From an uncultured Muribaculaceae bacterium (GTDB lineage: Bacteria; Bacillota_I; Bacilli_A; RF39; UBA660): a stretch of 64,000 bases of DNA. Location: contig CAZPLK010000002.1 of assembly GCA_964587565.1 (NCBI GenBank), positions 56,725 to 120,724 on the forward strand, read 5' to 3'. Positions 9,324 to 32,195 of the stretch are shown here, piece by piece (the stretch's first letter is position 1; the number at the start of each line of letters is the position of its first letter). The translations under genes were made by a program, and so were the position numbers. A model generated the notes under the pieces. That model was not told where the DNA came from. It made no database searches and was given only the letters and a program-made list of their open reading frames with translations.

Positions 9324-10472
<1,149 letters not shown>

Positions 10473-10494
10473 TTATTTTCTCATCTTTTTCAAT

Positions 10495-10528
10495 AGAAGC
10501 AAAAAAGTTGATATCGATACCAACTTTT
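10495..10528 (-). terminator. Rho-independent terminator after the 689-aa pilin-like gene
   Basis: Near-palindrome AAAAGTTG-ATATCGATAC-CAACTTTT immediately after the stop codon at 10532, followed on the minus strand by TTTTGCTTCT. Confidence 0.6.
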
Positions 10529-10531
10529 ATA

Positions 10532-12601
10532 TTAATATTCAACACCCTTATCATCTTCTTGATAAGAGAATTCGCCACTTGTATATGTAGTTTTATTACC
10601 TAAAATATCTTGTGCTTCAATTGTAAGAAAGTATATGTATCCTTTTTCCATTTTTACTGAAACTATACTATTTGTAGTTAGATCTATCCAATCATTTGAT
10701 CCACCAACAGGGGGTTCATTTAGTTTAAAAGATTTCCAACGATACCTAGCAAATTCTATTGTGCTGTTATCAGTTATATCAACATTTATCAAATATCTAG
10801 AAGTATAATTACAAATCGGAGGCATAGTGCCAGGCGGCTTAATACAACTTCCATTTGGATTAATAGTTATTCTAGGTCCTTCATTATCAATACTAAATGC
10901 ATTACTCCCTATTATTTTTTCGTTCCCAGCAGTATCAACCGCTTTTATCCACAAATAATAATTTCCTGTTTCTTTATCAGGCGTACTTATCGTGGCATTA
11001 TTAGATATTGTTTTATTAAAACTATTACTATTTGGTGGATTAGTTGACTTTGTCCACTGATAATAAATATTATTTATTGATCCATATGGCGAGTTAACAT
11101 TTACTTTTGTACTATGTGATTTTTTGAAATTAATGTCTCCATTTGGGCTAAATGAAATTTGAATACCTTCGTCAGTTACATTAAAAGCATTACTTCTTTC
11201 AATCGCAGTATTTCCTTCCACATCTTTTGCCATAACCCACAAATAATAACTCCCTGTTCCTCCTTTTGGTGTTGAAACAGTTTGCCCATTTGTGAAGGTT
11301 ATATTAAAATTACTTTCTTTTGGTGTTGCAGTACTGCTACTCCACAAATATTTTAAACTATTTAAATCTATTGCACTATGTTCGTCTGAAACAGTAATTT
11401 GTGTTTCATGAATTGGTGCAATAGAACTACTACCATTTGGGCTAAATGATACATTTGGTGGGATATTATCAGAAACAACAACTTTTCTAGAAACTTCGGT
11501 AATTTTATTTAAACTATTTGCCACCTTGTACCAAACTGTATATGATCCCACTCTATTGATATTAACATTTGAAGAAATGGATACTATATTAGTTAAGTCA
11601 CCATCATTTTTATCCAAAGCAATTACGCCAGCATCGCGATAAGTTTCACCCAAATTAATTACAGTTGGATTACTTCCTTTTAATTCAATAGTTGGATAAC
11701 TTGGATTAACAACAGTTATAGATCTATTTTTTTGTGTTTTATTTCCTGATGAATCGGCAGCAGTATATGTTATAAGATAAACCCCAGGTAAAGCACTTAT
11801 GTTTCCGGATACTTTCACATTAATAACTTCACGGGAATTATCAGAAACTTGGACACCATCCATATAATTAAAATTAGCAACTTCATCAACAGATAAAGTC
11901 GTATTTAATGGAATAGTTAATGTTGGGGGTTTGGTATCTCTTACTGTCACAGTTCTTATAACAGAAGACTTGACACCATTATATTCAGCTGTATATGTAA
12001 TTTTATACTGTAATAAAAAACTAGTATCTACTTTATTAACAATATTGTTATTTGATCTAATTTCTGTTTCTACATCATACAATAAAGAGCCATTAGGTTC
12101 TCTAGCAGACGCACCCTTTTCTATATACTCCTCATTTATTTCAACAATTTCATGAGCTTCACCGTTTAAAACAACTATTGGTGAGTCATAATTTATTATG
12201 TTATTTACTCCACCAGAATCTTCAACAATTTCATAATTCAATGAATTAACACCACGGATTATTAATATTTCCATATCATTCGGGAATTGTTGCTTATTTC
12301 TTGGATCTTTTATATCATCTTTTACAAATTTACCAACTTTTAATTGGCCTAAAGTCAATGTTATTTTTTCACCTTCGTTTTCTGGTAATAAATCAACATT
12401 ACTAGCAGCCCAATCTTTTGCTGCACTTTCAATAGTTGAGAGTTGTGCTGAGTATAATTCTTCCCTACTTTGTCTAACTACCCTATCAATTGCTGGTATC
12501 GCGACAAGTGAAATTATACCTATTATAAGTATTACTGCTAGCAACTCAATTAATGTAAATCCTTTACTTTTTTTAAAATTATTTGTTTCTTTACTACTCA
12601 T
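10532..12601 (-). CDS. Modular type IV pilin-like protein, 689 aa (prepilin signal + pilin head + 6 beta-sandwich modules)
   Basis: Leader MSSKETNNFKKSKG|FTLIELLAVILIIGIISLVAIPA (Gly-1, Phe+1, Glu+5). Three DUF5011-like ~78-aa modules, two ~98-aa modules of a second type, and a Cys-containing cap module. AGGAGG RBS lies 5 nt upstream of the ATG. Confidence 0.8.
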   Translation of the reverse strand: MSSKETNNFKKSKGFTLIELLAVILIIGIISLVAIPAIDRVVRQSREELYSAQLSTIESAAKDWAASNVDLLPENEGEKITLTLGQLKVGKFVKDDIKDPRNKQQFPNDMEILIIRGVNSLNYEIVEDSGGVNNIINYDSPIVVLNGEAHEIVEINEEYIEKGASAREPNGSLLYDVETEIRSNNNIVNKVDTSFLLQYKITYTAEYNGVKSSVIRTVTVRDTKPPTLTIPLNTTLSVDEVANFNYMDGVQVSDNSREVINVKVSGNISALPGVYLITYTAADSSGNKTQKNRSITVVNPSYPTIELKGSNPTVINLGETYRDAGVIALDKNDGDLTNIVSISSNVNINRVGSYTVWYKVANSLNKITEVSRKVVVSDNIPPNVSFSPNGSSSIAPIHETQITVSDEHSAIDLNSLKYLWSSSTATPKESNFNITFTNGQTVSTPKGGTGSYYLWVMAKDVEGNTAIERSNAFNVTDEGIQISFSPNGDINFKKSHSTKVNVNSPYGSINNIYYQWTKSTNPPNSNSFNKTISNNATISTPDKETGNYYLWIKAVDTAGNEKIIGSNAFSIDNEGPRITINPNGSCIKPPGTMPPICNYTSRYLINVDITDNSTIEFARYRWKSFKLNEPPVGGSNDWIDLTTNSIVSVKMEKGYIYFLTIEAQDILGNKTTYTSGEFSYQEDDKGVEY

Positions 12602-12621
12602 TTTTTCCTCCTATTATATTA

Positions 12622-12650
12622 ATTATATAATCACATTTATTTATTGTCAA
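12622..12650 (-). promoter_or_regulatory. Consensus sigma-A promoter of the 689-aa pilin-like gene
   Basis: Minus strand reads TTGACA (12650-12645), a 17-nt spacer, then TATAAT (12627-12622). The AGGAGG RBS follows. Confidence 0.65.
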
Positions 12651-12671
12651 AAAAACTCACATATATTGTGT

Positions 12672-12707
12672 AAAGTAAAAGAAAAGATCACCTCGTAGTG
12701 ATCTTTT
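12672..12707 (-). terminator. Rho-independent terminator after the ~1599-aa pilin-like gene
   Basis: Stem AAAAGATCAC/GTGATCTTTT (12682-12691 / 12698-12707) with a 6-nt loop. The minus strand continues TTTTCTTTTAC. Confidence 0.7.
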
Positions 12708-12717
12708 AATAGTTTAC

Positions 12718-15700
12718 CTAACAAAAACATATTCCTCCACCCGGCGGACAACAAGGATCATCTGGGGATTTTGATCTATATAAATTACTTATAAAAGTTG
12801 ACTTATTTCCAAGTGAATCGGTTGCTATAATTTTTAATCTATATGATTCATCCAATATTATTCTAGGAGAATTTATTATTCCATTAGCTGGTAACATAAA
12901 TAGTGGATAGTTTTCTTCCCCAGTTTTTACCCAACCATAAGAGGCCGATGGTATAAATACCGGACTACTTATTATAACTTTCACCTCGTATTCAGGTTTA
13001 TAGTTACAATCTGACCCTCCCAGTGATTCTGGGAAATAATTGTTTGGAGTATCGCCCAAATCAGGAAACTTTGGATCATGAGGAACAGTTGGATCTATTG
13101 GCGTAGGCGGCCTTGAGGTTTTACAAGAACCGTTTGGATCAACCTTTATAGTTGGTCCAGTATCAGCCACGCGGAAACCAACACTTCTAGTAGTTGTTAC
13201 GTTTCCGATCTCATCCTCGGCACTAATCCATAAATAATATATCCCAGTTACATTGGATGGCGTTGTTAATTTGGTTCCTTTTGCAGATAATTTATTAACG
13301 AAATCTGACCTAGACGGAGTTGATGTGCTATTAGTCCAAAGATAATATAAACTACCTAAATCTGAATGTTCATCCAAAATAGATACTGTAACATCATGAC
13401 TCCTTGCATACGTATTATAATTATTTGAATGAGTGAAAGTTACCTCTGGTGGAGTATTATCAATATAAAATGCATTAGTTCTTTTCTTTGCAACATTACC
13501 AGCAGTGTCTTTTGCTATTACCCACAAATAATATTTACCAGTCACATTAGAAGGTGTCATAATATTGGCATTATTATTGAATGGGGAAGTAAATACTGCC
13601 TCAATAGGTTCAGCCATTGATGTAGACCAAACAAATTTTAAACTAGCATTATTTACACTACTATGAGCATCTGTTACAGATACTTTAACACTTCTAGATC
13701 TAGCATATGTTGTGTTACCTGTTGTATCAAAATTTATAACAGGTGGTACATTATCTATTACCATTACTGTTCTTGTGGCAGTAGTTTGATTATTGGAAGA
13801 ATCTGATACCTTGTAAGTTATAGTGTAATTCCCTGGTCTATTAACGTTTACTGTTCCAGTAACTGCAATTTTATGAGTTATATCACCATCAACATCATCC
13901 ATGGCAGTAGCTCCAGCATCAACATATGTTGTGCCAACATTAATTAAAACAGGATTACTTCCCTTTAATGTTATTACAGGTGCTGTATTATCCGCAACTA
14001 TTACTGTCCTTACAACAGGTGTAGCATAATTACCGCTGCTGTCAGCTGCCTTATAAGTTATTTTATATGAGCCTGGTACATTAACGTTTACAGTTCCAGT
14101 TGCTGTTGCAACTATATTTGTATCAACATTATCAGTCACCGTAACACCAGGATCCATGAAGCTTGAACCTAGATCAATACGCATGTTTGCACTACCTTTT
14201 AATGTTATCACAGGGGGAATATTGTCTAAATTAAATGCGTTACTTCTTTCAATTGAAGTATTTCCAACAGAATCTTTAGCTAATATCCATAAATAATATC
14301 TCCCACTAGCACCTGAAGGTGTTACAATCGTATTCCCATTAACAAATGAGCTAGAAAAACTTCCTTCACTTGGTGTTGATGTACTTGTACTCCACAAATA
14401 TTTTAAACTGCTTGTATTTACATTACTGTGAGTATCAGTAACTGTTACTTTTGTACTATGACTTTGTTTATATGTACTATTACCTTTCGAACTAAACGAT
14501 ATTACTGGTGGTACATTATCAACTACATTTACTGTCCTTTTAGCTGTTGCTTTATTACCAGCGGTGTCAGATACAGTATACGTTATAGTGTATGTACCTG
14601 GTATATTTATATTTATAGTTCCGCTTGTTGTTATTCGCGATGTAATATTACCATCCACATTATCAGTCGCTGTTGCTCCAGCATCAGTATATGTTCCTCC
14701 TACATTTAGAGTAACTATAGAGTCTCCATTTAACGTTATTACTGGTTTAGTATTATCTAGTCTAAACACATTACTTCTTTGAATTTTTCTATTTCCTGCA
14801 GTATCTTCTGCTAGTATCCATAAGTAATAATTTCCACTTACTCCTGTTGGAGTAGATATTGTACCATTATTATTAAAGTTAATTGTAAAACTACTTACAC
14901 TTGGTGTTGATGTACTTGTACTCCATAAATATTTCAAACTACTTGTATTTACTTTACTGTGAGCATCCGTAACTGTTACTTTTGTACTATGACTTTGTTT
15001 ATATGTACTATTACCATTTGTACCAAATGATATTACTGGTGGTATATTATCAACTACATTTACTGTCCTTTTAGCTGTTGCTTTATTACCAGCTGAATCG
15101 GATACAGTATACGTTATTGTATATGTACCAGGTATATTTATGTTTACAGTTCCACTTGTTGTAATATTATTTGTTACATCTCCATCAACGTCATCAATTG
15201 CAGTTGCACCTTCATCTTTATAAGATGTCCCTACATTTACTATTGCTGGATTACTCCCTTTAATGGTTATTACAGGTGCCTCACTATCAATTACAACAAC
15301 AGTTCGCTTAACAGGCGTAGCGACATTACCAGCCGAATCAGATACATTATAAGTTATTGTATATGTACCAACTTTATTAATATTTACAGAACCTGATACT
15401 ATTATTTTATTTGTAATATTACCATCAATATTATCACTAGCTGTCGCACCGGGATCTTGGAATGTACTTCCCCTATTAATAGTCATAGATGAACTACCAG
15501 TTAGTGTTATTACTGGTTTAACATTATCTAAATTAAAAGCATTACTTCTTTGAATAGAGGTGTTACCAGCTTTATCTAAAGCTTTTATCCATAAATAATA
15601 TGTTCCAGTTTGATTACTAGGTAATGAAAGGTTACTTTCGTTTGTAAACGAATTTGTAAATAATTGTTCATTTGGTGTAGTTGTACTTACATGCCATAAA

Positions 15701-17517
15701 TATCTTAAATTTCCATTATCAACGCCACTGTGAGCATCAGTAACCGTTACTTTTGTATTATGATTTTGTTTATATGTACTATTACCATTTGGGCTAAACG
15801 ATATTACTGGCGGTATATTATCAACTACATTTACTGTTCTTGTTGCAGTCGATACCGTTCCAGCACTGTTTTTAACAGTATAAGTTATCTTATATGATCC
15901 TATTACATTCATATTTATAGTTCCGCTTGTTGTAATATTTGAAGTTATATTACCATCAATCGCATCAGTCGCTGTCGCGCCTGGATCTTTATATGAAGTA
16001 CCAACATTAACGGTCATTGGGTTTTGACCTAATAAATTTAAAGTTGGTGCTGTATTATTTAATTTAAAGACATTAGTTCTTTGAATTTTAGTATTGCCTG
16101 CAACATCTGAAGCTTTTATCCATAAGTAATAATCACCAGTTACATCCCTTGGTGTATTAATAGTGCCATTGTTAGTAAATGTATTAGTAAAATCCCCTTC
16201 TTTTGGAGTTGAAGTTGATGTACTCCATAAATATTTTAAACTTTGATTATCCACAATACTATGAGCATCTGTTACTATTACCTTTGTACTATGATTTCTT
16301 GCATATTTTGAATTACCATTTGGTTCAAATGCTATAACCGGTGGAATATTATCAACTACATATATTGTCCTTACAACAGTTGTTGTATTACCAAATTTAT
16401 TAGTTACAGAATAAGTTACATTGTAAGTACCTGGTCTACTTGGATTTATATTTGTATTAATTAACACTTTATTTGTCAAATTACCTTCACTTTTATCATG
16501 AGCTGTAAACCCAGGCTCCATATATGAAGTGTCAACGTATATAGATAAGGGATTATTCCCTTTTAAAACAATTTCCGGATGACTAGCACTTATTACCGTA
16601 ATATACCTTGTTTTTTTAGTTTCATTTCCTGATGGATCTTTAGCTATATAAGTGATTAAATACTGCCCTGGCATGGTGCTTAAATTTCCTTTTACCTCAA
16701 CAGAAACATCACCTAATGAATTATCTGACGTTTTTACACCTTCCATGAAATCAAAACTTGCAACTTCTTCATCAAATATAGTTATATTACTTGGTATAGT
16801 TAAAACCGGTGGAATTGTATCTTTGATTGATACAGTTCTTACAACCGAAGAACTCCTGCCATCATGAGTAACGGTGTATATAACTTTATATTGTGTAAGT
16901 TTATTAGTTTCAATATTTGAAACAGTTTTATCATTTAATTTAATGACAATATCTATATTATCTAGAAGCACACCATTTGGATCCCTTGCCTCTGCACCTT
17001 TTTCATTATAATAGGAATTTATTTCAACAATCTCATGAGCTAAACCATTTAAAACAATAGTTGGAGCATCATAATCAATTTCGTCATCTACTCCACCTGA
17101 ATTTTCGATGATTTCATATTTATAACTATTCATAACGCGATGAACAACTATTTCCATATCATTTGGAAATAGTTTCCTATTTCTAGGATCTTTTATATCT
17201 TTTTGGACAAATCCACCCTTTTTTAATTGACCAAGAGTTAATGTGATTTGTTCGCCATCATTTTCAGGTAAAAGTGTAGGATATGTTGAAGACCAACTCT
17301 TAACCCCTTCTTCAATATTATCCATTTGAGTTTGGTACAACTCTTCCCTACTTTGTCTCATCAATCTTCCAACAGTCGGAACTACAATAACTGAAACGAT
17401 ACCAATAATAAATATCACCGCTAGTAGTTCAACTAAAGTAAAAGCCTTTTTAATTTGTTTTTTAGAATTTTCATCTATTATTCTTTGATTAATTTTTTTT
17501 ATAATATTTTTCAACAT
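12718..17517 (-). CDS. Giant modular type IV pilin-like protein, ~1599 aa (prepilin signal + pilin head + 16 beta-sandwich modules + Cys-rich tail)
   Basis: ...QIKKA|FTLVELLAVIFIIGIVSVIVVPT (Ala-1, Phe+1, Glu+5). The N-terminal ~330 aa are paralogous to the 689-aa neighbour. It has 9 DUF5011-like modules, 6 modules of a second ~98-aa type and a cap module, and ends in PDDPCCPPGGGICFC. The likely start is the ATG at 17517 (AAAGAGG RBS); the tracked TTG at 17535 lies upstream of that RBS. Confidence 0.8.
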   Translation of the reverse strand: MLKNIIKKINQRIIDENSKKQIKKAFTLVELLAVIFIIGIVSVIVVPTVGRLMRQSREELYQTQMDNIEEGVKSWSSTYPTLLPENDGEQITLTLGQLKKGGFVQKDIKDPRNRKLFPNDMEIVVHRVMNSYKYEIIENSGGVDDEIDYDAPTIVLNGLAHEIVEINSYYNEKGAEARDPNGVLLDNIDIVIKLNDKTVSNIETNKLTQYKVIYTVTHDGRSSSVVRTVSIKDTIPPVLTIPSNITIFDEEVASFDFMEGVKTSDNSLGDVSVEVKGNLSTMPGQYLITYIAKDPSGNETKKTRYITVISASHPEIVLKGNNPLSIYVDTSYMEPGFTAHDKSEGNLTNKVLINTNINPSRPGTYNVTYSVTNKFGNTTTVVRTIYVVDNIPPVIAFEPNGNSKYARNHSTKVIVTDAHSIVDNQSLKYLWSTSTSTPKEGDFTNTFTNNGTINTPRDVTGDYYLWIKASDVAGNTKIQRTNVFKLNNTAPTLNLLGQNPMTVNVGTSYKDPGATATDAIDGNITSNITTSGTINMNVIGSYKITYTVKNSAGTVSTATRTVNVVDNIPPVISFSPNGNSTYKQNHNTKVTVTDAHSGVDNGNLRYLWHVSTTTPNEQLFTNSFTNESNLSLPSNQTGTYYLWIKALDKAGNTSIQRSNAFNLDNVKPVITLTGSSSMTINRGSTFQDPGATASDNIDGNITNKIIVSGSVNINKVGTYTITYNVSDSAGNVATPVKRTVVVIDSEAPVITIKGSNPAIVNVGTSYKDEGATAIDDVDGDVTNNITTSGTVNINIPGTYTITYTVSDSAGNKATAKRTVNVVDNIPPVISFGTNGNSTYKQSHSTKVTVTDAHSKVNTSSLKYLWSTSTSTPSVSSFTINFNNNGTISTPTGVSGNYYLWILAEDTAGNRKIQRSNVFRLDNTKPVITLNGDSIVTLNVGGTYTDAGATATDNVDGNITSRITTSGTININIPGTYTITYTVSDTAGNKATAKRTVNVVDNVPPVISFSSKGNSTYKQSHSTKVTVTDTHSNVNTSSLKYLWSTSTSTPSEGSFSSSFVNGNTIVTPSGASGRYYLWILAKDSVGNTSIERSNAFNLDNIPPVITLKGSANMRIDLGSSFMDPGVTVTDNVDTNIVATATGTVNVNVPGSYKITYKAADSSGNYATPVVRTVIVADNTAPVITLKGSNPVLINVGTTYVDAGATAMDDVDGDITHKIAVTGTVNVNRPGNYTITYKVSDSSNNQTTATRTVMVIDNVPPVINFDTTGNTTYARSRSVKVSVTDAHSSVNNASLKFVWSTSMAEPIEAVFTSPFNNNANIMTPSNVTGKYYLWVIAKDTAGNVAKKRTNAFYIDNTPPEVTFTHSNNYNTYARSHDVTVSILDEHSDLGSLYYLWTNSTSTPSRSDFVNKLSAKGTKLTTPSNVTGIYYLWISAEDEIGNVTTTRSVGFRVADTGPTIKVDPNGSCKTSRPPTPIDPTVPHDPKFPDLGDTPNNYFPESLGGSDCNYKPEYEVKVIISSPVFIPSASYGWVKTGEENYPLFMLPANGIINSPRIILDESYRLKIIATDSLGNKSTFISNLYRSKSPDDPCCPPGGGICFC
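14371..14632 (-). repeat. Copy 1 of a recent ~531-bp-offset intragenic duplication
   Basis: Aligns by eye to 14902-15163 with about 22 mismatches in ~262 nt. The offset of 531 bp equals 177 codons, i.e. one short plus one long module. Confidence 0.8.
14902..15163 (-). repeat. Copy 2 of a recent ~531-bp-offset intragenic duplication
   Basis: See 14371-14632. Protein level: ITTSGTVNINIPGTYTITYTVSDSAGNKATAKRTVNVVDNIPPVISF...STYKQSHSTKVTVTDAHS versus the near-identical downstream copy. Confidence 0.8.
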
Positions 17518-17547
17518 CAGCAATACCTCTTTCAATCGTATATTTCA

Positions 17548-17576
17548 ATTATATATTTTATGTAGAAAATTGTCAA
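17548..17576 (-). promoter_or_regulatory. Consensus sigma-A promoter of the giant pilin-like gene
   Basis: Minus strand reads TTGACA (17576-17571), a 17-nt spacer, then TATAAT (17553-17548). Confidence 0.65.
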
Positions 17577-17594
17577 TAAAACACATAGAAATAA

Positions 17595-18941
17595 CTACAT
17601 ATTTTTTAAATATGTAGTTATTTTTTCTAACTGCATTTTTCGGGACCCTTTTATTAAAATAATACAATTACTTAAATCCATTTCTTTCAAATGATTTACT
17701 AATTGAACATTATCTTGAAAGTGATAATATTTTCTTTTTAATACTTTCATTTCTTCTCCTACTAAAAGTACTGTTTTATTATGAATCCTCTTTAATTTTC
17801 TATGAATTTTTTTATGAATAATTTTACTGTATTTCCCGAGCTCTAAAATATCTCCTAAAATTATTATTTTGTGTAATGGATGTTTTTCTAATAAATTTAA
17901 CACACCTATTAATGATTCATAACTAGAATTGTAACAATCTTCAATTAATATATTATTTTTTCTAAGTTTTTGCACATTCATTCTTTTATCAATTGCTTTA
18001 AAATTTCCAATTCTTTTTAATATATCTTTAATAGGAATTTTATAAATTAATCCTACTTTTATTGCCAATAATACATTAGTAATTAAATGAATACCAGGGA
18101 TATTAAATACAACATCATACTCTTTATTTTCTACTTGTATTTGAAAAGTAGTTTTATCAAAGTACTGCTTAATATTGTAAGCAATTAAATCATTACTCTC
18201 TTTCAACCCACACTTAAAAATATTAAAATTTTTATACTTGTGTTTTTTTAAAAATTTATCATCACCATTAATAACTATAACACCTGAATTCATACCACTT
18301 AATATTTCTAGTTTTGATTTAAAAATATTTCTTACTGAACCTAAATTACCTATATGAGATGTGCCTATATTTGTAATTACTGAAGTAGTAGGTTTACACA
18401 ATTCCGATAGTTGCTTTATCTCCCCTTTGTGATTCATTCCTAGTTCCATTACCACTATATTATGTTTCTCATTTAATTCAAACATTGTTTTAGGAACCCC
18501 TATATGATTATTATTACTTTTTTTACTCTTTAACACGTTGTAATTTGTAGACAATATATATGATATTAAATCTTTAGTAGTAGTTTTACCAACACTACCT
18601 GTTACTGCAATTAGTGGTATATTATATAGTTTTCTTTTATAATCAGCTATATTAATTAACACTTCATATGTGTTTTTAACTTTTATTATAGGTACTGATG
18701 TTTCAAAACCTATATTCCTTTCAGTTATAATTGCACCAGCACCTTTATTAAGTGCATCTTTGATATAATCATGACCGTCATATTTTAAACCAACAATTGC
18801 AATAAATAAATCACCATTTTTTATTAATCTACTGTCTAATCTTATTTTTTTTATTTTATTGAATTTAGGATTATATTCATTAATAATCTTTCCTTTACAT
18901 ACCTCTAGCAAACTTTTAATTTCCATTAAATCACCTTTCAT
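17595..18941 (-). CDS. murF: UDP-MurNAc-tripeptide--D-alanyl-D-alanine ligase MurF
   Basis: Mur ligase P-loop GSVGKTTTKD and overall MurF layout. An alternative start (ATG at 18926, MEIKSLL) is equally plausible. Confidence 0.85.
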   Translation of the reverse strand: MKGDLMEIKSLLEVCKGKIINEYNPKFNKIKKIRLDSRLIKNGDLFIAIVGLKYDGHDYIKDALNKGAGAIITERNIGFETSVPIIKVKNTYEVLINIADYKRKLYNIPLIAVTGSVGKTTTKDLISYILSTNYNVLKSKKSNNNHIGVPKTMFELNEKHNIVVMELGMNHKGEIKQLSELCKPTTSVITNIGTSHIGNLGSVRNIFKSKLEILSGMNSGVIVINGDDKFLKKHKYKNFNIFKCGLKESNDLIAYNIKQYFDKTTFQIQVENKEYDVVFNIPGIHLITNVLLAIKVGLIYKIPIKDILKRIGNFKAIDKRMNVQKLRKNNILIEDCYNSSYESLIGVLNLLEKHPLHKIIILGDILELGKYSKIIHKKIHRKLKRIHNKTVLLVGEEMKVLKRKYYHFQDNVQLVNHLKEMDLSNCIILIKGSRKMQLEKITTYLKNM

Positions 18942-19298: not shown

Positions 19299-19709
19299 TT
19301 ACCTTAAAGTTATTATTTGTTTAGACAACCAAAAATAATCATTGTTTTCAAAATCACATATAAATACATAATTACTATATAAATTCAATATCCAAAAAAA
19401 ATAAGGAAAATTTGAATTAGTAATAATTACTAATGTTGAATAATTAACAAATAATAAACTTGCCTCTTTTTTTGTTAAATATAAAAATTTATTATTGTTA
19501 TTTTTAATATTAGGAATAGTTAATAGTATTTTAATGAAATTTTTAGTATTATATTTATTACACATTTGCTTATATAAACTAATGGGATGATTTATATTTG
19601 AATTTTTATAATTATAAAGTTGATATAAACTAACATATAATTCTTTTAAGTTAAACTCATAAAGTGATGCCACTTCCTTTTTTATTACAAATGCATAATA
19701 TTTTCTCAT
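19299..19709 (-). CDS. sirA: SirA (YneE)-like protein, putative sporulation inhibitor of replication
   Basis: Sits between tkt and yneF, exactly where sirA lies in B. subtilis. The N-terminus MRKYYAFVIKKEVASLY resembles the recalled SirA start MERHYYTYLIKEEFANHY. Similar size (136 aa). Confidence 0.5.
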   Translation of the reverse strand: MRKYYAFVIKKEVASLYEFNLKELYVSLYQLYNYKNSNINHPISLYKQMCNKYNTKNFIKILLTIPNIKNNNNKFLYLTKKEASLLFVNYSTLVIITNSNFPYFFWILNLYSNYVFICDFENNDYFWLSKQIITLR

Positions 19710-19786: not shown

Positions 19787-21802
19787 ATATTTTTGTAATA
19801 TTCTATTTTTAATTTGAGTATATGTGAAATCACAATAATTTAAAACTTCTTCCCTCGTTCCGCTTATTCCATAATTACTAATTGTAATTAAATCACTTTC
19901 ATCTTTTACAAAGCGATGCCAACCGAAAGAGGAACCAGCTTCTATTACAATAGTTTTTACATTTGATGGTAACAATCTCTGTTTATATAAGTCCGTTTGC
20001 TCTAAAAATAGTTCCATTGAAGGCATGCTAACTACTCTTAAATCAATATTATGAGTTTCATATATTTCAACGGCAATATTATATGATGTCCTAACTTCAC
20101 TACCAGTTGCAATAATAATACCATCTAGTCTTTCCCTTTCAGCCTTAACTACATAAGCACCATATTTAACTCTTGATGGATCAGTTGTCCTTAATATTTC
20201 AACATGATTTCTTGATGCAATTAAACAATTTGTTCCTTTATTATTTAGTATTTCATGCCAGCAACCAACTAATTCCTTGGCATCAGCAGGTCTAAACACA
20301 TTAACATCAGGAGTTGATCTTAACATAGCTAATTGTTCAATCGGTTGATGAGTTGGACCATCCGGTCCTATTGAAATAGAGTCATGTGTATATATATAAG
20401 TAACAGGTAAATTCATCAATGCAGATAATCTTATCGATGGTTTTTGATAATCAGCAAATGATAAAAAAGTTGAACCAAATGGCCTAAAACCTGTCAATGC
20501 TAATCCATTTAATATTGCAGCCATTGCATGCTCACGAACACCAAACCAAATGTTTTTACCATTATAGTTTTCCTTAGTTATATCGGGTTGAGTATGTAAA
20601 TAAGTTTTAGTAGAAGTTCCTACGTCTGCACTACCGCCAATAAAAGTATCTATTTTTTCACTTAACTTTAACATTATTTTACCATTAATATCGCGTAAAG
20701 AGTCTTTTTCAAACATTAAATAATCCCACCCCATACTTACAACATCAATGTTAAAACGACTTGTTACTACATTGTTAAATAAATTATAATCACCACGATA
20801 TTTACTTTCTACATATTCTTTATAAATATCATCCCATTCATAAAAATATTTTTGGTATCGTTTACTAACTTCTTTTCTAAAATAGTCTAACGTACCTTTA
20901 GGTATATAAAATTTATTCTCGGGCAAATGAAGTTTCTGTTTTAATAATAATGTTTCTTTATCACCTAAAACTTTTCCATGCACCTCATGAGTTCCTTCAA
21001 GCGATGTACCTTTACCAATAGTTGTTTTAATTTCAATAATAGTTGGTTTTGATGATGATTTAGCACGATTAATTGCTCGATTAATTGCTGATAAATCTTC
21101 ACCATTTCTTACTAATTCCGTATTCCATCCCATAGATTTAAAACGTTCCAGTACATTTTCATCAAATGAATTTGATGTAGGCCCATCTAAACTTATATCA
21201 TTAGAATCATATAACACTATTAAGTTGTTAAGACATAGTGTTCCCGCTAATGATGCAGCTTCATATGATATACCTTCCATTAAATCACCATCACCACATA
21301 ATACATAAACACGGTAATCAAAAACAGACTTATTTGAACCAAATATTTTTTTATTATCTGTCGTACCATATTTTTCATTATTAATTTTTCCACCTAATGC
21401 CATCCCAACAGCGCTAGCAATTCCTTGCCCCAATGGTCCAGTGGAAATATCTACTCCACTTGTTACACCGTATTCTGGATGACCTGGTGTAGGAAAACCA
21501 CTTCTTCTAAATTTTTTTAAATCATCCAAAGATATATTAAAACCAGCCATATACAACATAGCATACAATAATGCTGAACCATGCCCCGCTGACATTACAA
21601 AACGATCTCTATTAATCCAACTTGGATCAACTGTACTATATTTTAAATGATTTTTGTATAAAGTATACATTATAGGAGCAGCACCAAGTACTATACCAGG
21701 GTGTCCACTGCCTGCCTCATTTATCATATCAATTGCTAATCCTTTTAAATAATTAATAGCCATCTCATCAAAACTAATCTTTGTATTTTGTTGATTTCTC
21801 AT
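19778..21802 (-). CDS. tkt: Transketolase
   Basis: GHPG, GDGDLMEG (ThDP-binding) and conserved pyrimidine/C-terminal domains, ~670 aa. Confidence 0.95.
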   Translation of the reverse strand: MRNQQNTKISFDEMAINYLKGLAIDMINEAGSGHPGIVLGAAPIMYTLYKNHLKYSTVDPSWINRDRFVMSAGHGSALLYAMLYMAGFNISLDDLKKFRRSGFPTPGHPEYGVTSGVDISTGPLGQGIASAVGMALGGKINNEKYGTTDNKKIFGSNKSVFDYRVYVLCGDGDLMEGISYEAASLAGTLCLNNLIVLYDSNDISLDGPTSNSFDENVLERFKSMGWNTELVRNGEDLSAINRAINRAKSSSKPTIIEIKTTIGKGTSLEGTHEVHGKVLGDKETLLLKQKLHLPENKFYIPKGTLDYFRKEVSKRYQKYFYEWDDIYKEYVESKYRGDYNLFNNVVTSRFNIDVVSMGWDYLMFEKDSLRDINGKIMLKLSEKIDTFIGGSADVGTSTKTYLHTQPDITKENYNGKNIWFGVREHAMAAILNGLALTGFRPFGSTFLSFADYQKPSIRLSALMNLPVTYIYTHDSISIGPDGPTHQPIEQLAMLRSTPDVNVFRPADAKELVGCWHEILNNKGTNCLIASRNHVEILRTTDPSRVKYGAYVVKAERERLDGIIIATGSEVRTSYNIAVEIYETHNIDLRVVSMPSMELFLEQTDLYKQRLLPSNVKTIVIEAGSSFGWHRFVKDESDLITISNYGISGTREEVLNYCDFTYTQIKNRILQKYKE

Positions 21803-28185: not shown

Positions 28186-28962
28186 TCATCCTATTAATTT
28201 TCTCAAATCTTCCAATGCTCCTTTTTCTAATCTAGATATTTGTGCTTGAGATATTCCTATTTCTTTTGCTAACTCAACTTGAGTTTTCCCCACCATATAT
28301 CTTGAGTAAATTATATATCTTTCTTTTTCTTTAAGCTTGTTCAAAGAGGAACTAAGTGCAATGTAAGACTCTTGGTCGTAATAATACTTATTGTTATCCC
28401 CTAATTGATCAGCCAAATATATTGTATCACCTCCATCGTTATATATAGGTTCAAACATGCTAATTGCATCTTTCATCGAGTTTAATGCGTAATTAACTTC
28501 ATATTCAGTTATATTCAATTCCTTAGCAATCATTTCAGCACTTGGTTCTTTACCTAATTTATTGGTCAGTTTTTCTTTTGCTGTTAAAGCTTTATACGCA
28601 GTATCTTTTATACTTCTAGCAATCCTAACACTGTTATTATCCCTTAAATATCTTTTAACCTCACCTAAAATCATTGGAACTGCATATGTTGAAAATCTCA
28701 CCTCGTGTTTTAAATCAAAATTATCTATAGCTTTTATTAATCCAATACACCCCACTTGAAATAAATCATCCATATTATCAGTACGATTTTGAAATCTTCT
28801 TAATATGCTTAAGACTAATTTTAAATTTCCATTTACTAGTTCTTCTTTTGCTAATTGATTACCGTTTTGAAATTCAATGAATAATTTTGTCATTTCTTCA
28901 TTAGTTAAAACTTTAATATCCGCAGTATTCACGCCACTAATTTCAACTTTGTAGCGTGCCAT
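28186..28962 (-). CDS. sigG: Sporulation sigma factor SigG (sigma-G)
   Basis: N-terminus MARYKVEISGVNTADIKVLTNEEM...AKEELVNGNLKLVLSILRRF is typical of sigma-G/F. The 259-aa length matches B. subtilis sigma-G (260 aa), and regions 2-4 are intact. ATG at 28962 follows AAAGGAG. Confidence 0.85.
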   Translation of the reverse strand: MARYKVEISGVNTADIKVLTNEEMTKLFIEFQNGNQLAKEELVNGNLKLVLSILRRFQNRTDNMDDLFQVGCIGLIKAIDNFDLKHEVRFSTYAVPMILGEVKRYLRDNNSVRIARSIKDTAYKALTAKEKLTNKLGKEPSAEMIAKELNITEYEVNYALNSMKDAISMFEPIYNDGGDTIYLADQLGDNNKYYYDQESYIALSSSLNKLKEKERYIIYSRYMVGKTQVELAKEIGISQAQISRLEKGALEDLRKLIG

Positions 28963-29018
28963 AAAAAAATCTCCTTTCACCTTTTATAATGGTGAATTTA
29001 GAGATTTTTTATTCATTA

Positions 29019-29765
29019 TTAAAATTTATATCTTAAATTTTTTCTTTTTATTAATTTTTTCTGCTTATCAAAATCTATTGAAATTTTAATGTTATTGACC
29101 AAATTATTAATAGATGTACTATAAGGGTTATGTAACATTAAAAACTCTTCACATGGATAATCATTAATAATATTACCGATCATTTTAATATAATTTAATT
29201 TTACAATTTCATCTTTTTTAGTTACATCATTTATTATTTGAAATGATTCATCAAAATCAAAACAAACTCTACCAGTGCTTAACTCTTCTTTTGTTTCTAA
29301 AAATATTGAGTAATTGTCATTGAGTAGCATTTTAATAATAAATTGATCTAATTGATGATATTCCCAAAAGTTTTTTGAAAAGTGTTCCTTTAAAGATTTT
29401 ATTAACAATCTATATATGTATTGATCATAAAACTGCTCAATCATTTGATACGCATAAATATATTTATATAAGTCAGCTTTAGTTTGTATATTTGAATTGT
29501 TATATTCCTTTATTAATTCCTTTTTTATTGTTAATAAATCTTTTAATTGTTCAGTAACCTTTAATTGTATTTTATAATACTTTTTATTTTTTTTCTTATT
29601 AAAATCATGAAACTCCATTAAATGTTTATAACATTGATCCATTAAATCTATTGTTAAAGGTATTAAAAGTGGAACAACGGATGAAATATCAATGTTTTGA
29701 TATTCTAATAACTTTAGTCTTTTTTCCTTTGATAAATAAAAATTATTAATTGTTTTTTCGTTCAT
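29019..29765 (-). CDS. Hypothetical cytoplasmic protein, 248 aa, no recognised domain
   Basis: Long ORF with an AAAGGAG-type RBS. Lys/Tyr/Ile-rich with helical character. I recognise no motif. Confidence 0.5.
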   Translation of the reverse strand: MNEKTINNFYLSKEKRLKLLEYQNIDISSVVPLLIPLTIDLMDQCYKHLMEFHDFNKKKNKKYYKIQLKVTEQLKDLLTIKKELIKEYNNSNIQTKADLYKYIYAYQMIEQFYDQYIYRLLIKSLKEHFSKNFWEYHQLDQFIIKMLLNDNYSIFLETKEELSTGRVCFDFDESFQIINDVTKKDEIVKLNYIKMIGNIINDYPCEEFLMLHNPYSTSINNLVNNIKISIDFDKQKKLIKRKNLRYKF

Positions 29766-29795
29766 TTTTTCTCCTTTTTAAAAAATTACTACGAA

Positions 29796-31397
29796 CTACT
29801 TACTAATTTTTAATATTTCATATATATCATCCGAATCACAATAAACAACATTCAACTTCATACCCTCTTCAATAAATGGTAATATGTTTGGGTTTACTTT
29901 TATTGAAACCTTATATTTATTATTTAAATTATCTAAAAAATAATAGTATGAAGTGCCATCAATAATTGCTGTTTTAATCGAAGATATAGTTATCTTTTCC
30001 CATACCATGTCCTTTTCATCTATAATGTTTAAATCATTACCTAAATAATTTTGTGCTGCTTTTTTGATACCTTCTTTTGCATCTGTAACAACTACCTTTT
30101 GATAATCTACGACATCAACAAATGCGTACATCTTTACTAAACCGGCATTATCTTTTAATGATAATAAATAAGTAGGCTTGTTATTTAAATTAATTAGCAA
30201 CGGAAATGTTGCACGATAATTCATTTGCTGTACTTGACCTTCTGCACTTGCCATTGCTGAGAATTCTTCTGCACCAGACACTGGATAAAACACAGTATTT
30301 TTAGTTCTTAAATTTGTCAATATAAATCCTATATTTGATTCATCAGTAGCTACAGATGTAATTCCTGTATACAAATAAACATCATCATTCATCACTGTAT
30401 AATTATACCCTTCTGTGGTTGCAATAACTCCTTTTTGTCCAAACACTGAATTAATATAGCCTTTTTCATATTTACCCCAGTCGTTAACTTGTTCTAAAAT
30501 AAGCTCTGTAGGGTAAACATGATCAATCCAAGATGGTATTTCACCCACTTTATATTTTGTTGTTTCACCAGTAATTGGATCTAAAGTTACAACGCCTGTT
30601 ACATCTCGCCTTAAACCAACTCCTGCATAAGATAATGTCGGTATAACCCAAAATGGATTGCCGTTGTTATCTATTTCAAATTCGTGTTTACCAAAAATTT
30701 TAGTTGGATATTCAAACCTTAATTTTCTATATAAATTTTCATTAAATAAAGCAGATGGCATATATCTCATACCTTTATCTAAACGTACCAACTCCGCCTT
30801 ACCAGTAACTGAGTTTAAAATAATATACCCTTTTACGCCTTCTTTCCTATTAGTAAAATATTTAATAACATTTGCATATTCTAAAGGTGTTACCCTAACT
30901 ATATCATTAAGATAATTTATTTGGGTGTATAAACTTGAGACAGAAAACTGAGATACTAAATCTGTCATTTGTCCCATAACCCTATCTCCTAGTTTTTGAC
31001 TTGAATCCTTATCCAATAAAGGCAAAGAATTAAAATCAACCTCACTAACATCCTTTTCAAAAATCCCATCTTTTACTACTTCTATTCTTTTATAGTATTT
31101 ACTTGCACTGAAAAATGGGGCATTTATAATATTAATTACTAAAATTAATATAAACACAATGGGAATAGATAACAATAAAGAATGCTTTTCATTAAGTTTT
31201 TCCATTTTTTTAAAATTAACAATTATATTATTGTTAAACTTTAAATTTAATAATTGATCTATTATATAATAAGACACAATAATTATTAAAACAAAAGGAT
31301 AAAACTCTGGTGCACTAAAATTAATAGGTGGTAACATAATATAGTAGAAGAAAATACCTATTAACATAGTTAAAATTATAGTTTTTATTTTTTTCAT
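29796..31397 (-). CDS. Hypothetical membrane protein, 533 aa, with large extracytoplasmic domain
   Basis: Three N-terminal TM segments and a ~420-aa soluble domain. GGAGG RBS. I cannot assign a family confidently. Confidence 0.55.
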   Translation of the reverse strand: MKKIKTIILTMLIGIFFYYIMLPPINFSAPEFYPFVLIIIVSYYIIDQLLNLKFNNNIIVNFKKMEKLNEKHSLLLSIPIVFILILVINIINAPFFSASKYYKRIEVVKDGIFEKDVSEVDFNSLPLLDKDSSQKLGDRVMGQMTDLVSQFSVSSLYTQINYLNDIVRVTPLEYANVIKYFTNRKEGVKGYIILNSVTGKAELVRLDKGMRYMPSALFNENLYRKLRFEYPTKIFGKHEFEIDNNGNPFWVIPTLSYAGVGLRRDVTGVVTLDPITGETTKYKVGEIPSWIDHVYPTELILEQVNDWGKYEKGYINSVFGQKGVIATTEGYNYTVMNDDVYLYTGITSVATDESNIGFILTNLRTKNTVFYPVSGAEEFSAMASAEGQVQQMNYRATFPLLINLNNKPTYLLSLKDNAGLVKMYAFVDVVDYQKVVVTDAKEGIKKAAQNYLGNDLNIIDEKDMVWEKITISSIKTAIIDGTSYYYFLDNLNNKYKVSIKVNPNILPFIEEGMKLNVVYCDSDDIYEILKISK

Positions 31398-31460: not shown

Positions 31461-32195
31461 TTATGTTTTAACTAGTGTTTTTATTTTTTTAATTACTTTT
31501 TTCTCAATTCTAGATATGTATGACTGACTTATATTTAATAAATTTGCAACATCTTTTTGTGTCATTTCATTACAGTCATATAACCCATAGCGCAAAATCA
31601 TAATTTTTTTATCTCTACTATTTAATTTATTTATTTCATTATATAGCATTTCTTTTTCTACTTCTTCTTCAATACTTTTAGTTACAATATCAGGATCAGT
31701 TCCCAATATATCTTCTAAATGTAATTCATTACCTTCACCATCAAAACTTAAACTATCTTCTAAACTTATTTCTCCTCGCCTTCTTTTATTTTTCCTTAAA
31801 TACATTAAAATTTCGTTATCTATACATCTTGATGCGTAAGTAGCAAGTTTTATATTTTTATCAAGCTTATAAGTGTTAACACCTTTTATTAAACCAATTG
31901 TACCAATACTAACTAAATCCTCTAAATCAATTTTTGTGTTATCATACTTTTTAGCTAAAAAAACTACTAATCTTAAATTGTGTTCTATAAGCTTAGCACG
32001 GGCTAGTTCATCACCTTCATCTGCCTTTTGAACATATTTTACCTCTTCCTCTTTAGAAAGTGGTTCAGGTAACTTGTCTGAACTACCGACATAAAACAAA
32101 GCATTTTTAACATTGAAAAAATCTAATAATAAATTAATTAATTTTTTTATATTATCCCTCCAATATTTTATGATGTAATATACAACCCACATCAT
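31461..32195 (-). CDS. sigE: Sporulation sigma factor SigE (pro-sigma-E)
   Basis: A pro-sequence, then FYVGSSDKLPEPLSKEEE...LIEHNLRLVVFLAKKY, typical of sigma-E. The start is uncertain: the ATG at 32195 overlaps spoIIGA by 44 nt. Confidence 0.85.
   Translation of the reverse strand: MMWVVYYIIKYWRDNIKKLINLLLDFFNVKNALFYVGSSDKLPEPLSKEEEVKYVQKADEGDELARAKLIEHNLRLVVFLAKKYDNTKIDLEDLVSIGTIGLIKGVNTYKLDKNIKLATYASRCIDNEILMYLRKNKRRRGEISLEDSLSFDGEGNELHLEDILGTDPDIVTKSIEEEVEKEMLYNEINKLNSRDKKIMILRYGLYDCNEMTQKDVANLLNISQSYISRIEKKVIKKIKTLVKT

Follow-up and report, generated by a model that had tools for sequence, protein, structure and literature searches.

What are two very large pilin-like genes doing among housekeeping genes, and can proteins of such a size be pilins at all? 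The question is raised by a tandem pair of genes on contig CAZPLK010000002.1 of an uncultured bacterium, of which we analysed one continuous stretch of 64,000 nucleotides (nt), hereafter the window. Both genes, with all the features of them described below, are on the minus strand and lie between tgt and murF. Gene 1 (10532..12601 including the stop codon) encodes a modular pilin-like protein of 689 amino acids (aa), and gene 2 (12718..17517 including the stop codon) a giant one of 1599 aa; each call combines an open reading frame (ORF) with hidden Markov model matches. An initial annotation had proposed two ORFs of 689 and ~1599 aa, which both exist, and had offered two explanations for them, a true modular pilin or a mere membrane anchor; these are the right ones to weigh. 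We give about an even chance to the first, in which the products of the pair are modular type IV pilins, in effect fibrillar adhesins anchored by a pilin, which are processed by a peptidase and inserted by their head in a type IV filament.

Both proteins carry the class III signal that had been claimed for them: a short basic leader, Gly or Ala at position −1, Phe1, Glu5 and then a hydrophobic stretch. In protein 1 the leader is 14 aa long and basic, with Gly at −1 (12560..12601), and the predicted cleavage site lies between KSKG and FTLIELLAVILIIGIISLVAIP; in protein 2 it is 25 aa long and likewise basic, with Ala at −1 (17443..17517), and the site lies between IKKA and FTLVELLAVIFIIGIVSVIVVP. 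The mature N-terminus of both reads F1-T-L-(I/V)-E5...G14...P22. The prepilin families anticipated in the initial annotation were found above their curated cut-offs, PF07963 with 29.4 bits in protein 1 and 21.3 bits in protein 2 (cut-off 21.2, which protein 2 barely exceeds) and TIGR02532 with 27.3 and 21.4 bits (cut-off 16.3), and the anticipated PF16403 was found in the modules that follow. Judged by motif and profile, both proteins thus begin with a genuine class III (prepilin) signal, carried on an α1 helix of the pilin type.

The same N-termini also match the GspG, ComGC, ComGD and ComGE models, weakly and in all cases below threshold. These matches, together with the common retention of comG operons in related reduced-genome Bacillota (PMC12786226), could be taken to mean that the pair are minor pseudopilins of a Com-type or type II secretion-like system, with a role in the capture of DNA or another substrate and not in adhesion. 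We consider this unlikely. The scores are far under the equivalog cut-offs (ComGC, NF040999: 27 and 22.3 bits against 75; GspG, TIGR01710: 27.7 and 23.3 bits against 88.85), the genes are outside any comG operon, and a stalk of 15 immunoglobulin (Ig)-like modules, such as that of protein 2, is typical of adhesins and not of DNA receptors.

The structure prediction that had been suggested for residues ~1-330 was run with AlphaFold2 on the first 340 residues, using a 25-sequence family alignment, and the head was also modelled alone. The longer model, with a predicted local distance difference test (pLDDT) score of 84, has a pilin-type helix of 51 residues (precursor residues 17-67 of protein 1) and a small β-sheet (79-126), followed by the first two modules as β-sandwiches; the model of the head alone reached a pLDDT of 90. 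The head, estimated earlier at ~120 aa, measures ~123 aa in protein 1 (12191..12559). In protein 2 it takes up mature residues 1-122 (17077..17442), with Phe1, Glu5, Gly14, Pro22, a long α1 and a small β-sheet, as assigned from these residues and the homologous head model. In searches of PDB sequences, the whole of α1 (~60 residues) was matched by Geobacter PilA at E = 8.6e-8, by Streptococcus sanguinis PilE1, MshA and PilA at E values from 2.2e-5 to 9.7e-5, and by GspG more weakly. Besides two weak rows for ATP synthase subunit b, all matches were type IV pilins or pseudopilins, and every pilin match ran along α1. In a profile-profile comparison (hhalign), GspG-like small pilins were aligned with a probability of 98.8% over 62 columns. 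The β-sheet part of the head is family-specific.

Beyond the head, both proteins consist of Ig-like modules arranged in a stalk. We cut the modules manually at recurring 'DNxPPxI' boundaries, and this dissection gave the same counts as the initial annotation, 6 and 16 β-sandwich modules. In protein 1, the leader and head are followed by the series A A A B B and a terminal module (3 A + 2 B + 1); in protein 2, by A A A B A B A A B A B A A B B and a terminal module (9 A + 6 B + 1). The A modules, of ~79 aa, match PF16403 (DUF5011, 'Bact_surface_Ig-like'), which we take to be the same entry as IPR032179; its matches cover 3 stretches in protein 1 and 9 in protein 2. The B modules, of ~98 aa, have weak PKD/Ig-like matches and no Pfam family above cut-off. 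Delimited by PF16403 and the dissection, the stalk of gene 1, with its 3 A-type and 2 B-type modules, extends over 10889..12190, and that of gene 2, with its 15 β-sandwich modules, over 13165..17076. When the 340-residue model was submitted to Foldseek, all matches were to Ig-like stalks (SraP, InlK, Rib, cadherins and RTX adhesin extender repeats). The two proteins, which are paralogues, share 44% identity over 673 columns and ~54% over their first 340 residues. The resemblance of the first ~330 aa that had been seen by eye is real, but the conserved unit is shorter, consisting of the head and two Ig modules (~295 aa).

Within gene 2, the DNA of the repeat units (A+B, 531 nt; A+A+B, 771 nt) is at most 87% identical, and the pattern of these units indicates that the stalk grew through their duplication. 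Tandem Repeats Finder detected no arrays, because the module repeats are too diverged. For the same reason, collapse of the repeats during assembly is unlikely. The source is a metagenome-assembled genome (MAG), and repeats are prone to mis-assembly, so that one might suspect an artefact, either mis-assembled repeats or pseudogenes with a chance pilin-like motif. We regard this as very improbable, since both frames run uninterrupted for 2.1 and 4.8 kb, the repeats inside them have diverged as described, the 1599-aa product of gene 2 is identical to an independently recorded database protein (P0068), and dozens of homologues from independent samples have the same architecture.

Each stalk ends in a terminal module that is distinct from the stalk modules. 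That of gene 1 (118 aa, 10535..10888) is B-like and has a short Pro-rich loop between Cys586 and Cys597. That of gene 2 (148 aa, 12721..13164) is also B-like, and has a Pro-rich loop of 38 residues between Cys1465 and Cys1504 and a CCPPGGGICFC tail. The cysteines of both proteins are confined to these terminal modules, which match no Pfam family above cut-off. Among relatives the distal module varies on a conserved base: it is a Cys-loop B-like module in the window and Fib_succ_major-like at locus L012, where both genes of a tandem pair (L012 1-3528) end in a Cys-rich Fib_succ_major (TIGR02145)-like domain with a Cys-containing module just before it, and it is GBS_Bsp-like, Glug or ALK_LTK_GRD in other relatives. 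The distal module is thus an exchangeable part on the same pilin base.

A query with the first 226 residues retrieved ~40 close homologues, nearly all of ~295 aa (head plus two A modules), in the alignment of which Glu5 is invariant and position −1 is always Gly or Ala. With the full-length query, canonical prepilin N-termini were found in 31 of 108 large relatives, at lengths of 881-2728 aa; a 4433-aa protein belongs to the 90% cluster of one giant relative, its N-terminus being outside those checked. The 16-module pilin had been presented as an extreme case: its size is borne out, but it is one member of a large family, and fusions above 1000 aa, whose frequency was to be checked, recur among the relatives up to 2728 aa. 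Some relatives are automatically annotated as 'prepilin-type N-terminal cleavage/methylation domain-containing protein', and none is characterised. An exhaustive profile search retrieved mostly non-pilin DUF5011 giants, and ~10 of its 150 top matches begin at the head.

The head also occurs by itself. A profile of five stand-alone heads (117-137 aa) matched 3947 proteins at E ≤ 1e-5, more than 100 of them, among the matches listed, at E < 1e-35; proteins of this length have no evident role beyond that of a pilin subunit. Of 161 family members of all sizes, 143 have Gly and 18 have Ala at position −1, 160 have Phe1, 112 have Gly14 and 116 have Pro22. Glu5 is present in all 161, which is not an independent test, as all these sequences were chosen by a pattern requiring it. 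Structures of type IV pili connect Glu5, Gly14 and Pro22 with the packing of the subunits and with a partly melted α1N.

In which organisms is the family found? The window has a G+C content of 27% and contains dcw-cluster and sporulation genes (ftsA/ftsZ, murG/murB/murD, spoIIGA-sigE-sigG and a gene for a Germane-domain protein), and its source is therefore a walled, spore-forming, low-GC member of the Bacillota. The named sources of relatives are all uncultured MAGs labelled Bacilli, Mollicutes, Firmicutes or Clostridium, the G+C content of the related loci is 21-34%, and metagenomes from anaerobic digesters, landfills and the like are rich in members of the family. One relative MAG from biogas reactors, AS20ysBPTH_155 ('Mollicutes RF9 sp.'; 0.94 Mb, 92.65% complete, 27.7% G+C), carries at least two family members (loci L013 and L018), so the family persists in strongly reduced genomes. 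Several TPA_asm MAGs with related loci (L012, L016, L017, L020, L021, L025; G+C 24-30%) are titled 'uncultured Muribaculaceae bacterium', and two of them (L017, L021) carry Firmicute sporulation genes; this label is implausible and looks like a placeholder or an error.

Each gene of the pair has its own promoter, as had been stated, and in both cases the match to the σ70-type consensus TTGACA-N17-TATAAT is 12/12 (17548..17576 for the 1599-aa gene, 12622..12650 for the 689-aa gene). These are the only two perfect sites of this kind in the window, where 0.33 would be expected by chance. Gene 2 was called as an ORF at 12718-17535. Its true start is the ATG at 17517, because an AGAGG ribosome-binding site lies just ahead of it and the upstream TTG is inside this site, downstream of the −10 box. 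Position 17576, which had been given as the limit of the gene stretch, belongs to the −35 element of the promoter and is outside the coding sequence. Separate terminators had also been claimed: after gene 2 a terminator scanner detected an intrinsic-terminator-like hairpin (12682..12707), and after gene 1 an AT-rich palindromic hairpin with a T-run (10503..10528) was read by eye as terminator-like. The scanner did not flag the latter, because its stem has too few G-C pairs. The perfect consensus promoters suggest high expression.

How might such proteins work? We propose that the precursor would insert in the membrane via its class III signal, and that a prepilin peptidase encoded elsewhere would cut after the Gly or Ala at −1 and methylate Phe1. 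The head (α1 plus the small β-sheet) could then enter a type IV filament or a short pseudopilus, most likely in a terminal or sparse position, in a filament to which head-only paralogues from the same family would probably contribute as well. With its 5 or 15 Ig-like modules, the rigid stalk would carry the disulfide-looped distal module beyond the cell wall, over ~20 or ~60 nm if our assumption of ~4 nm per module is correct, and the distal module would there bind a ligand.

A terminal or sparse position is not the only one conceivable. The giants could polymerise as a major subunit, each with its Ig stalk pointing radially like the bristles of a bottle-brush; perfect consensus promoters would suit such an abundant subunit, and the head is complete and conserved. 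Yet stalks of 5-15 modules would cause severe crowding, the arrangement is without precedent, and the head-only paralogues are more natural subunits for the shaft. Modelling of the far smaller S. sanguinis PilB, moreover, places bulky modules likely at the tip, while not excluding the filament body (PMC8179133). We hold a radial major subunit to be improbable.

Several lines of evidence converge on the modular-pilin proposal. The family conserves residues (Gly/Ala at −1, Glu5, Gly14, Pro22) that belong to filament function rather than to anchoring, and both signals pass the curated PF07963 and TIGR02532 cut-offs. The α1 segment can be aligned with solved type IV pilins and GspG-like pilins, the stalk modules resemble adhesin stalk domains in the model, and stand-alone heads of 117-137 aa are abundant. 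The exchangeable distal module matches the carrier-plus-effector design that has been shown experimentally for S. sanguinis PilB (PMC8179133). Finally, the window holds no alternative anchor: there is no sortase motif in it, no LPXTG-type motif in the C-terminal 60 residues of the two proteins, and no cell-surface anchor domain among their Pfam matches.

Other observations weigh against it, first of all the search for machinery. The related loci, among them those of a contig scan with a 13-sequence alignment (14 loci, all in MAGs other than that of the window) and of a metagenome scan (12 more loci), amount to ~584 kb of DNA, duplicates included, and to ~20 distinct neighbourhoods, each reaching up to 10 kb on either side of a pilin-like gene. 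No prepilin peptidase, PilB/ComGA, PilC or PilM was found in the window or in this DNA. In the window, motif and Pfam searches confirmed the reported lack of pilus machinery: FtsK gave the only match to a GspE/PilB-type Walker A motif, an A24 peptidase motif was missing, the two genes carried the only prepilin motifs, and the ORFs that could not be named by eye are unrelated to pili. The T2SSE, T2SSF, Peptidase_A24 and PilM families are missing from every Pfam-annotated neighbourhood, and none of the 12 metagenome-scan loci has machinery. The head itself adds a second difficulty, as a Foldseek search of its model against solved structures gave no significant pilin match (best E = 0.9), and alignments establish homology to pilins for α1 only. 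Protein 2 combines Ala at −1 with a 25-residue leader, and in work on Pseudomonas PilD, Ala at −1 was reportedly cleaved less efficiently. The perfect promoters suggest an abundant surface protein more readily than a rare tip pilin, and we know of no precedent for a folded stalk of ~170 kDa that passes the peptidoglycan on a growing filament. As to machinery elsewhere in the genome, the support is only indirect: related Bacillota with reduced genomes commonly keep comG as well as type IV pilus systems (PMC12786226).

The same observations bring in the main rival, the second of the two initial explanations, to which we assign a smaller though still appreciable likelihood. Here the prepilin N-terminus would be only a sorting signal and membrane anchor, cleaved or not, and a free-standing, wall-spanning stalk would be held by α1N and never polymerise, the class III signal having replaced LPXTG and sortase in this lineage. 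Whatever their size, the pilin-like genes lie dispersed, one by one, among housekeeping genes and never stand beside machinery; each of the ~20 neighbourhoods shows an orphan surrounded by genes for housekeeping or sporulation, the head-only paralogues included, and the description of the window pair as orphans was correct. Strong promoters of a constitutive type are in keeping with a surface protein made in abundance, and no sortase or LPXTG motif is found in the window. One MAG, JBBAFH01, has several unrelated giant pilin-like proteins: a 668-aa family member (L014) and a 2717-aa giant with an unrelated head (L038). Archaea are also known to use class III signals on surface proteins that form no filaments, such as the sugar-binding proteins of Sulfolobus. 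On the other hand, a plain anchor needs no invariant buried Glu5, no Gly14 or Pro22 and no globular head kept throughout the family, and this model would leave the head-only paralogues (117-137 aa) without a function.

How new would such pilins be? Modular pilins are defined by an N-terminal pilin module (IPR012902) followed by one or more domains that are not specific to type IV pili, and more than 1,200 of them, in 264 architectures, have been catalogued, the most extreme having 860 residues and 12 repeats (Raynaud et al., 2021; PMC8179133). Both window proteins have this organisation, with a pilin head and then PF16403 and other Ig-like modules. The kind is thus already known, and the small architecture that combines N_methyl with IPR032179 is listed in Dataset S1, for three proteins with one copy and one with two copies (PMC8179133). 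In length, the window proteins exceed every modular pilin reported in the literature that was searched. What appears to be new is the scale, with 1599 aa in the window and 2728 aa or more among relatives, the layout of a fibrillar adhesin, stalk plus tip, on an N-terminal pilin anchor, and the sharing of one head by head-only, 295-aa and giant proteins whose genes are dispersed behind housekeeping genes.

S. sanguinis PilB and PilC also consist of a class III signal, a small pilin module and C-terminal non-pilin modules, but they carry a single grafted module (vWA and lectin, respectively) and are encoded within a pil locus, whereas the window genes encode 6 and 16 modules and are monocistronic orphans with perfect promoters of their own; PilB has been studied experimentally, while the window proteins are known from sequence alone. 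CofB of enterotoxigenic Escherichia coli, GspK and Thermus ComZ likewise have a pilin base with extra β-rich domains, and the filament tip is their presumed place (PMC8179133), but these have one or two extra domains and are encoded in pilus operons, unlike the long repetitive stalks in orphan position described here. With GspG and ComGC, the window proteins share the class III signal and α1 homology; they differ in the β part of the head and in having no gsp or comG operon around them. The fibrillar adhesins of Gram-positive bacteria (SraP, Rib/Alpha-like, InlK; surveyed by Monzon and Bateman, PMC9210967) are similarly very long and Thr/Asn/Ser-rich, with a tandem Ig-like stalk and a distinct distal module. 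The window proteins have the length and the 5 and 15 tandem Ig-like stalk modules of this class and lack its known surface anchors (LPXTG, SLH, LysM etc.): the adhesins are anchored at the C-terminus by LPXTG/sortase, SLH or choline-binding domains, the window proteins at the N-terminus by a pilin-type segment, so that polarity is inverted. The searched portion of a survey of fibrillar adhesins (PMC9210967) makes no mention of a prepilin N-terminus as an anchor class. A paper on a TANB77 pilin (PMC11680825) was set aside as unrelated, since it concerns a clustered pilus locus.

Through modular pilins one can understand how a simple type IV filament acquires further functions, but the characterised examples carry a single grafted module. 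Pilin-headed proteins of 1600-2700 aa raise the question of how much cargo a type IV filament can take through a Gram-positive wall, and a second one, whether a pilin head can stand in for sortase in the anchoring of fibrillar adhesins. The series from head-only through 295-aa to giant forms is a natural one for probing the limits of assembly. More speculatively, and as a generalisation that we find rather doubtful, one pilin head might serve as a general surface-display handle in this uncultured, often genome-reduced, low-GC Bacilli lineage, in genes that encode from 117 to several thousand aa with one processed N-terminus in common and stand singly behind dnaE, murD, nrdDG, ruvAB and tgt, all displayed on or through a single type IV filament system instead of sortase and LPXTG. 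If this were so, the giants would be fibrillar adhesins that span the wall and have a pilin as their base, and would represent an anchoring class not described before. Given its abundance in digester, landfill and similar metagenomes and its presence in small genomes, the family may be one of the main means of attachment, to particles or to partners, in these uncultured organisms.

In the relatives, pilin-like genes are found after nrdD-nrdG (L001, L007), a glycosyltransferase gene (L011), secA (L038) and divIC (L039), between an ATP-binding cassette (ABC) transporter and yabP-yqfD (L010), between murD and ftsK (L040, L041), flanking ruvA and ruvB (L023), and overlapping the end of dnaE ahead of cvpA-trx-rsmE (L036, L042, L043). 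In the last case a 118-aa head-only pilin gene overlaps the final dnaE codons (L036 2927-3283; L042 and L043 10001-10357) and is followed by cvpA, the thioredoxin gene and rsmE. The arrangement is kept across species at 69-98% protein identity, and the gene overlap suggests translational coupling of the small pilin to dnaE. Tandem pairs recur, with a 718-aa gene product (Ala at −1) followed by one of 668 aa (Gly at −1) at L015 and a large gene followed by a 690-aa gene at L012.

At L040, L041 and L011, several pilin genes of differing size lie within 15 kb, without machinery. A 131-aa head-only pilin is followed there by a pilin-like protein of 718-907 aa, with overlapping start and stop codons (L040 and L041 10001-12789; L011 21785-22874), and a further 125-aa pilin lies between murD and ftsK (L040 and L041, ~14660-15275). 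In three assemblies, the gene for a 957-aa modular pilin is immediately followed by a conserved block of four genes without Pfam matches (~129, 246, 160-166 and 563-568 aa; L011 13046-16465, L040 1302-4708, L041 1290-4708). Several of the products start with a hydrophobic segment or signal-like sequence, and they might be accessory factors. At L039, a fragment of a type IV secretion system (T4SS) coupling protein and a weak T4SS_pilin match (1-85 and 19839-20945) occur near a 2272-aa pilin-like giant; these conjugation-type genes are probably unrelated to it.

In the window itself, the flanking genes tgt (9324-10460) and murF (17595-18941) were scored against NCBIfam equivalog or subfamily cut-offs, and both products exceed them, in keeping with the housekeeping neighbours named in the initial annotation. 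The G+C content of the pilin-like genes is 0.31-0.33 (10001-16000), compared with 0.23-0.28 in the flanks, and their GC skew of −0.12 is less negative than that of the flanks (~−0.27). Horizontal transfer, which the higher G+C content brings to mind, was discarded: mobility genes are missing nearby, as had been noted before, and a Thr/Gly/Asn-rich composition explains enough. The composition of the encoded proteins, rich in Thr, Gly, Asn and Ser, is probably behind both shifts.

Two minor observations concern sporulation. SirA is a sporulation inhibitor of replication, and a 136-aa ORF between murF and tkt (19299-19709, minus strand) has a sub-threshold match to it (23.1 bits against a cut-off of 26). 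Between sigE (31461-32195) and sigG (28186-28980) there are two ORFs of 248 and 533 aa (29019-31397, minus strand) that have no Pfam match, and the 533-aa product starts with several hydrophobic segments.

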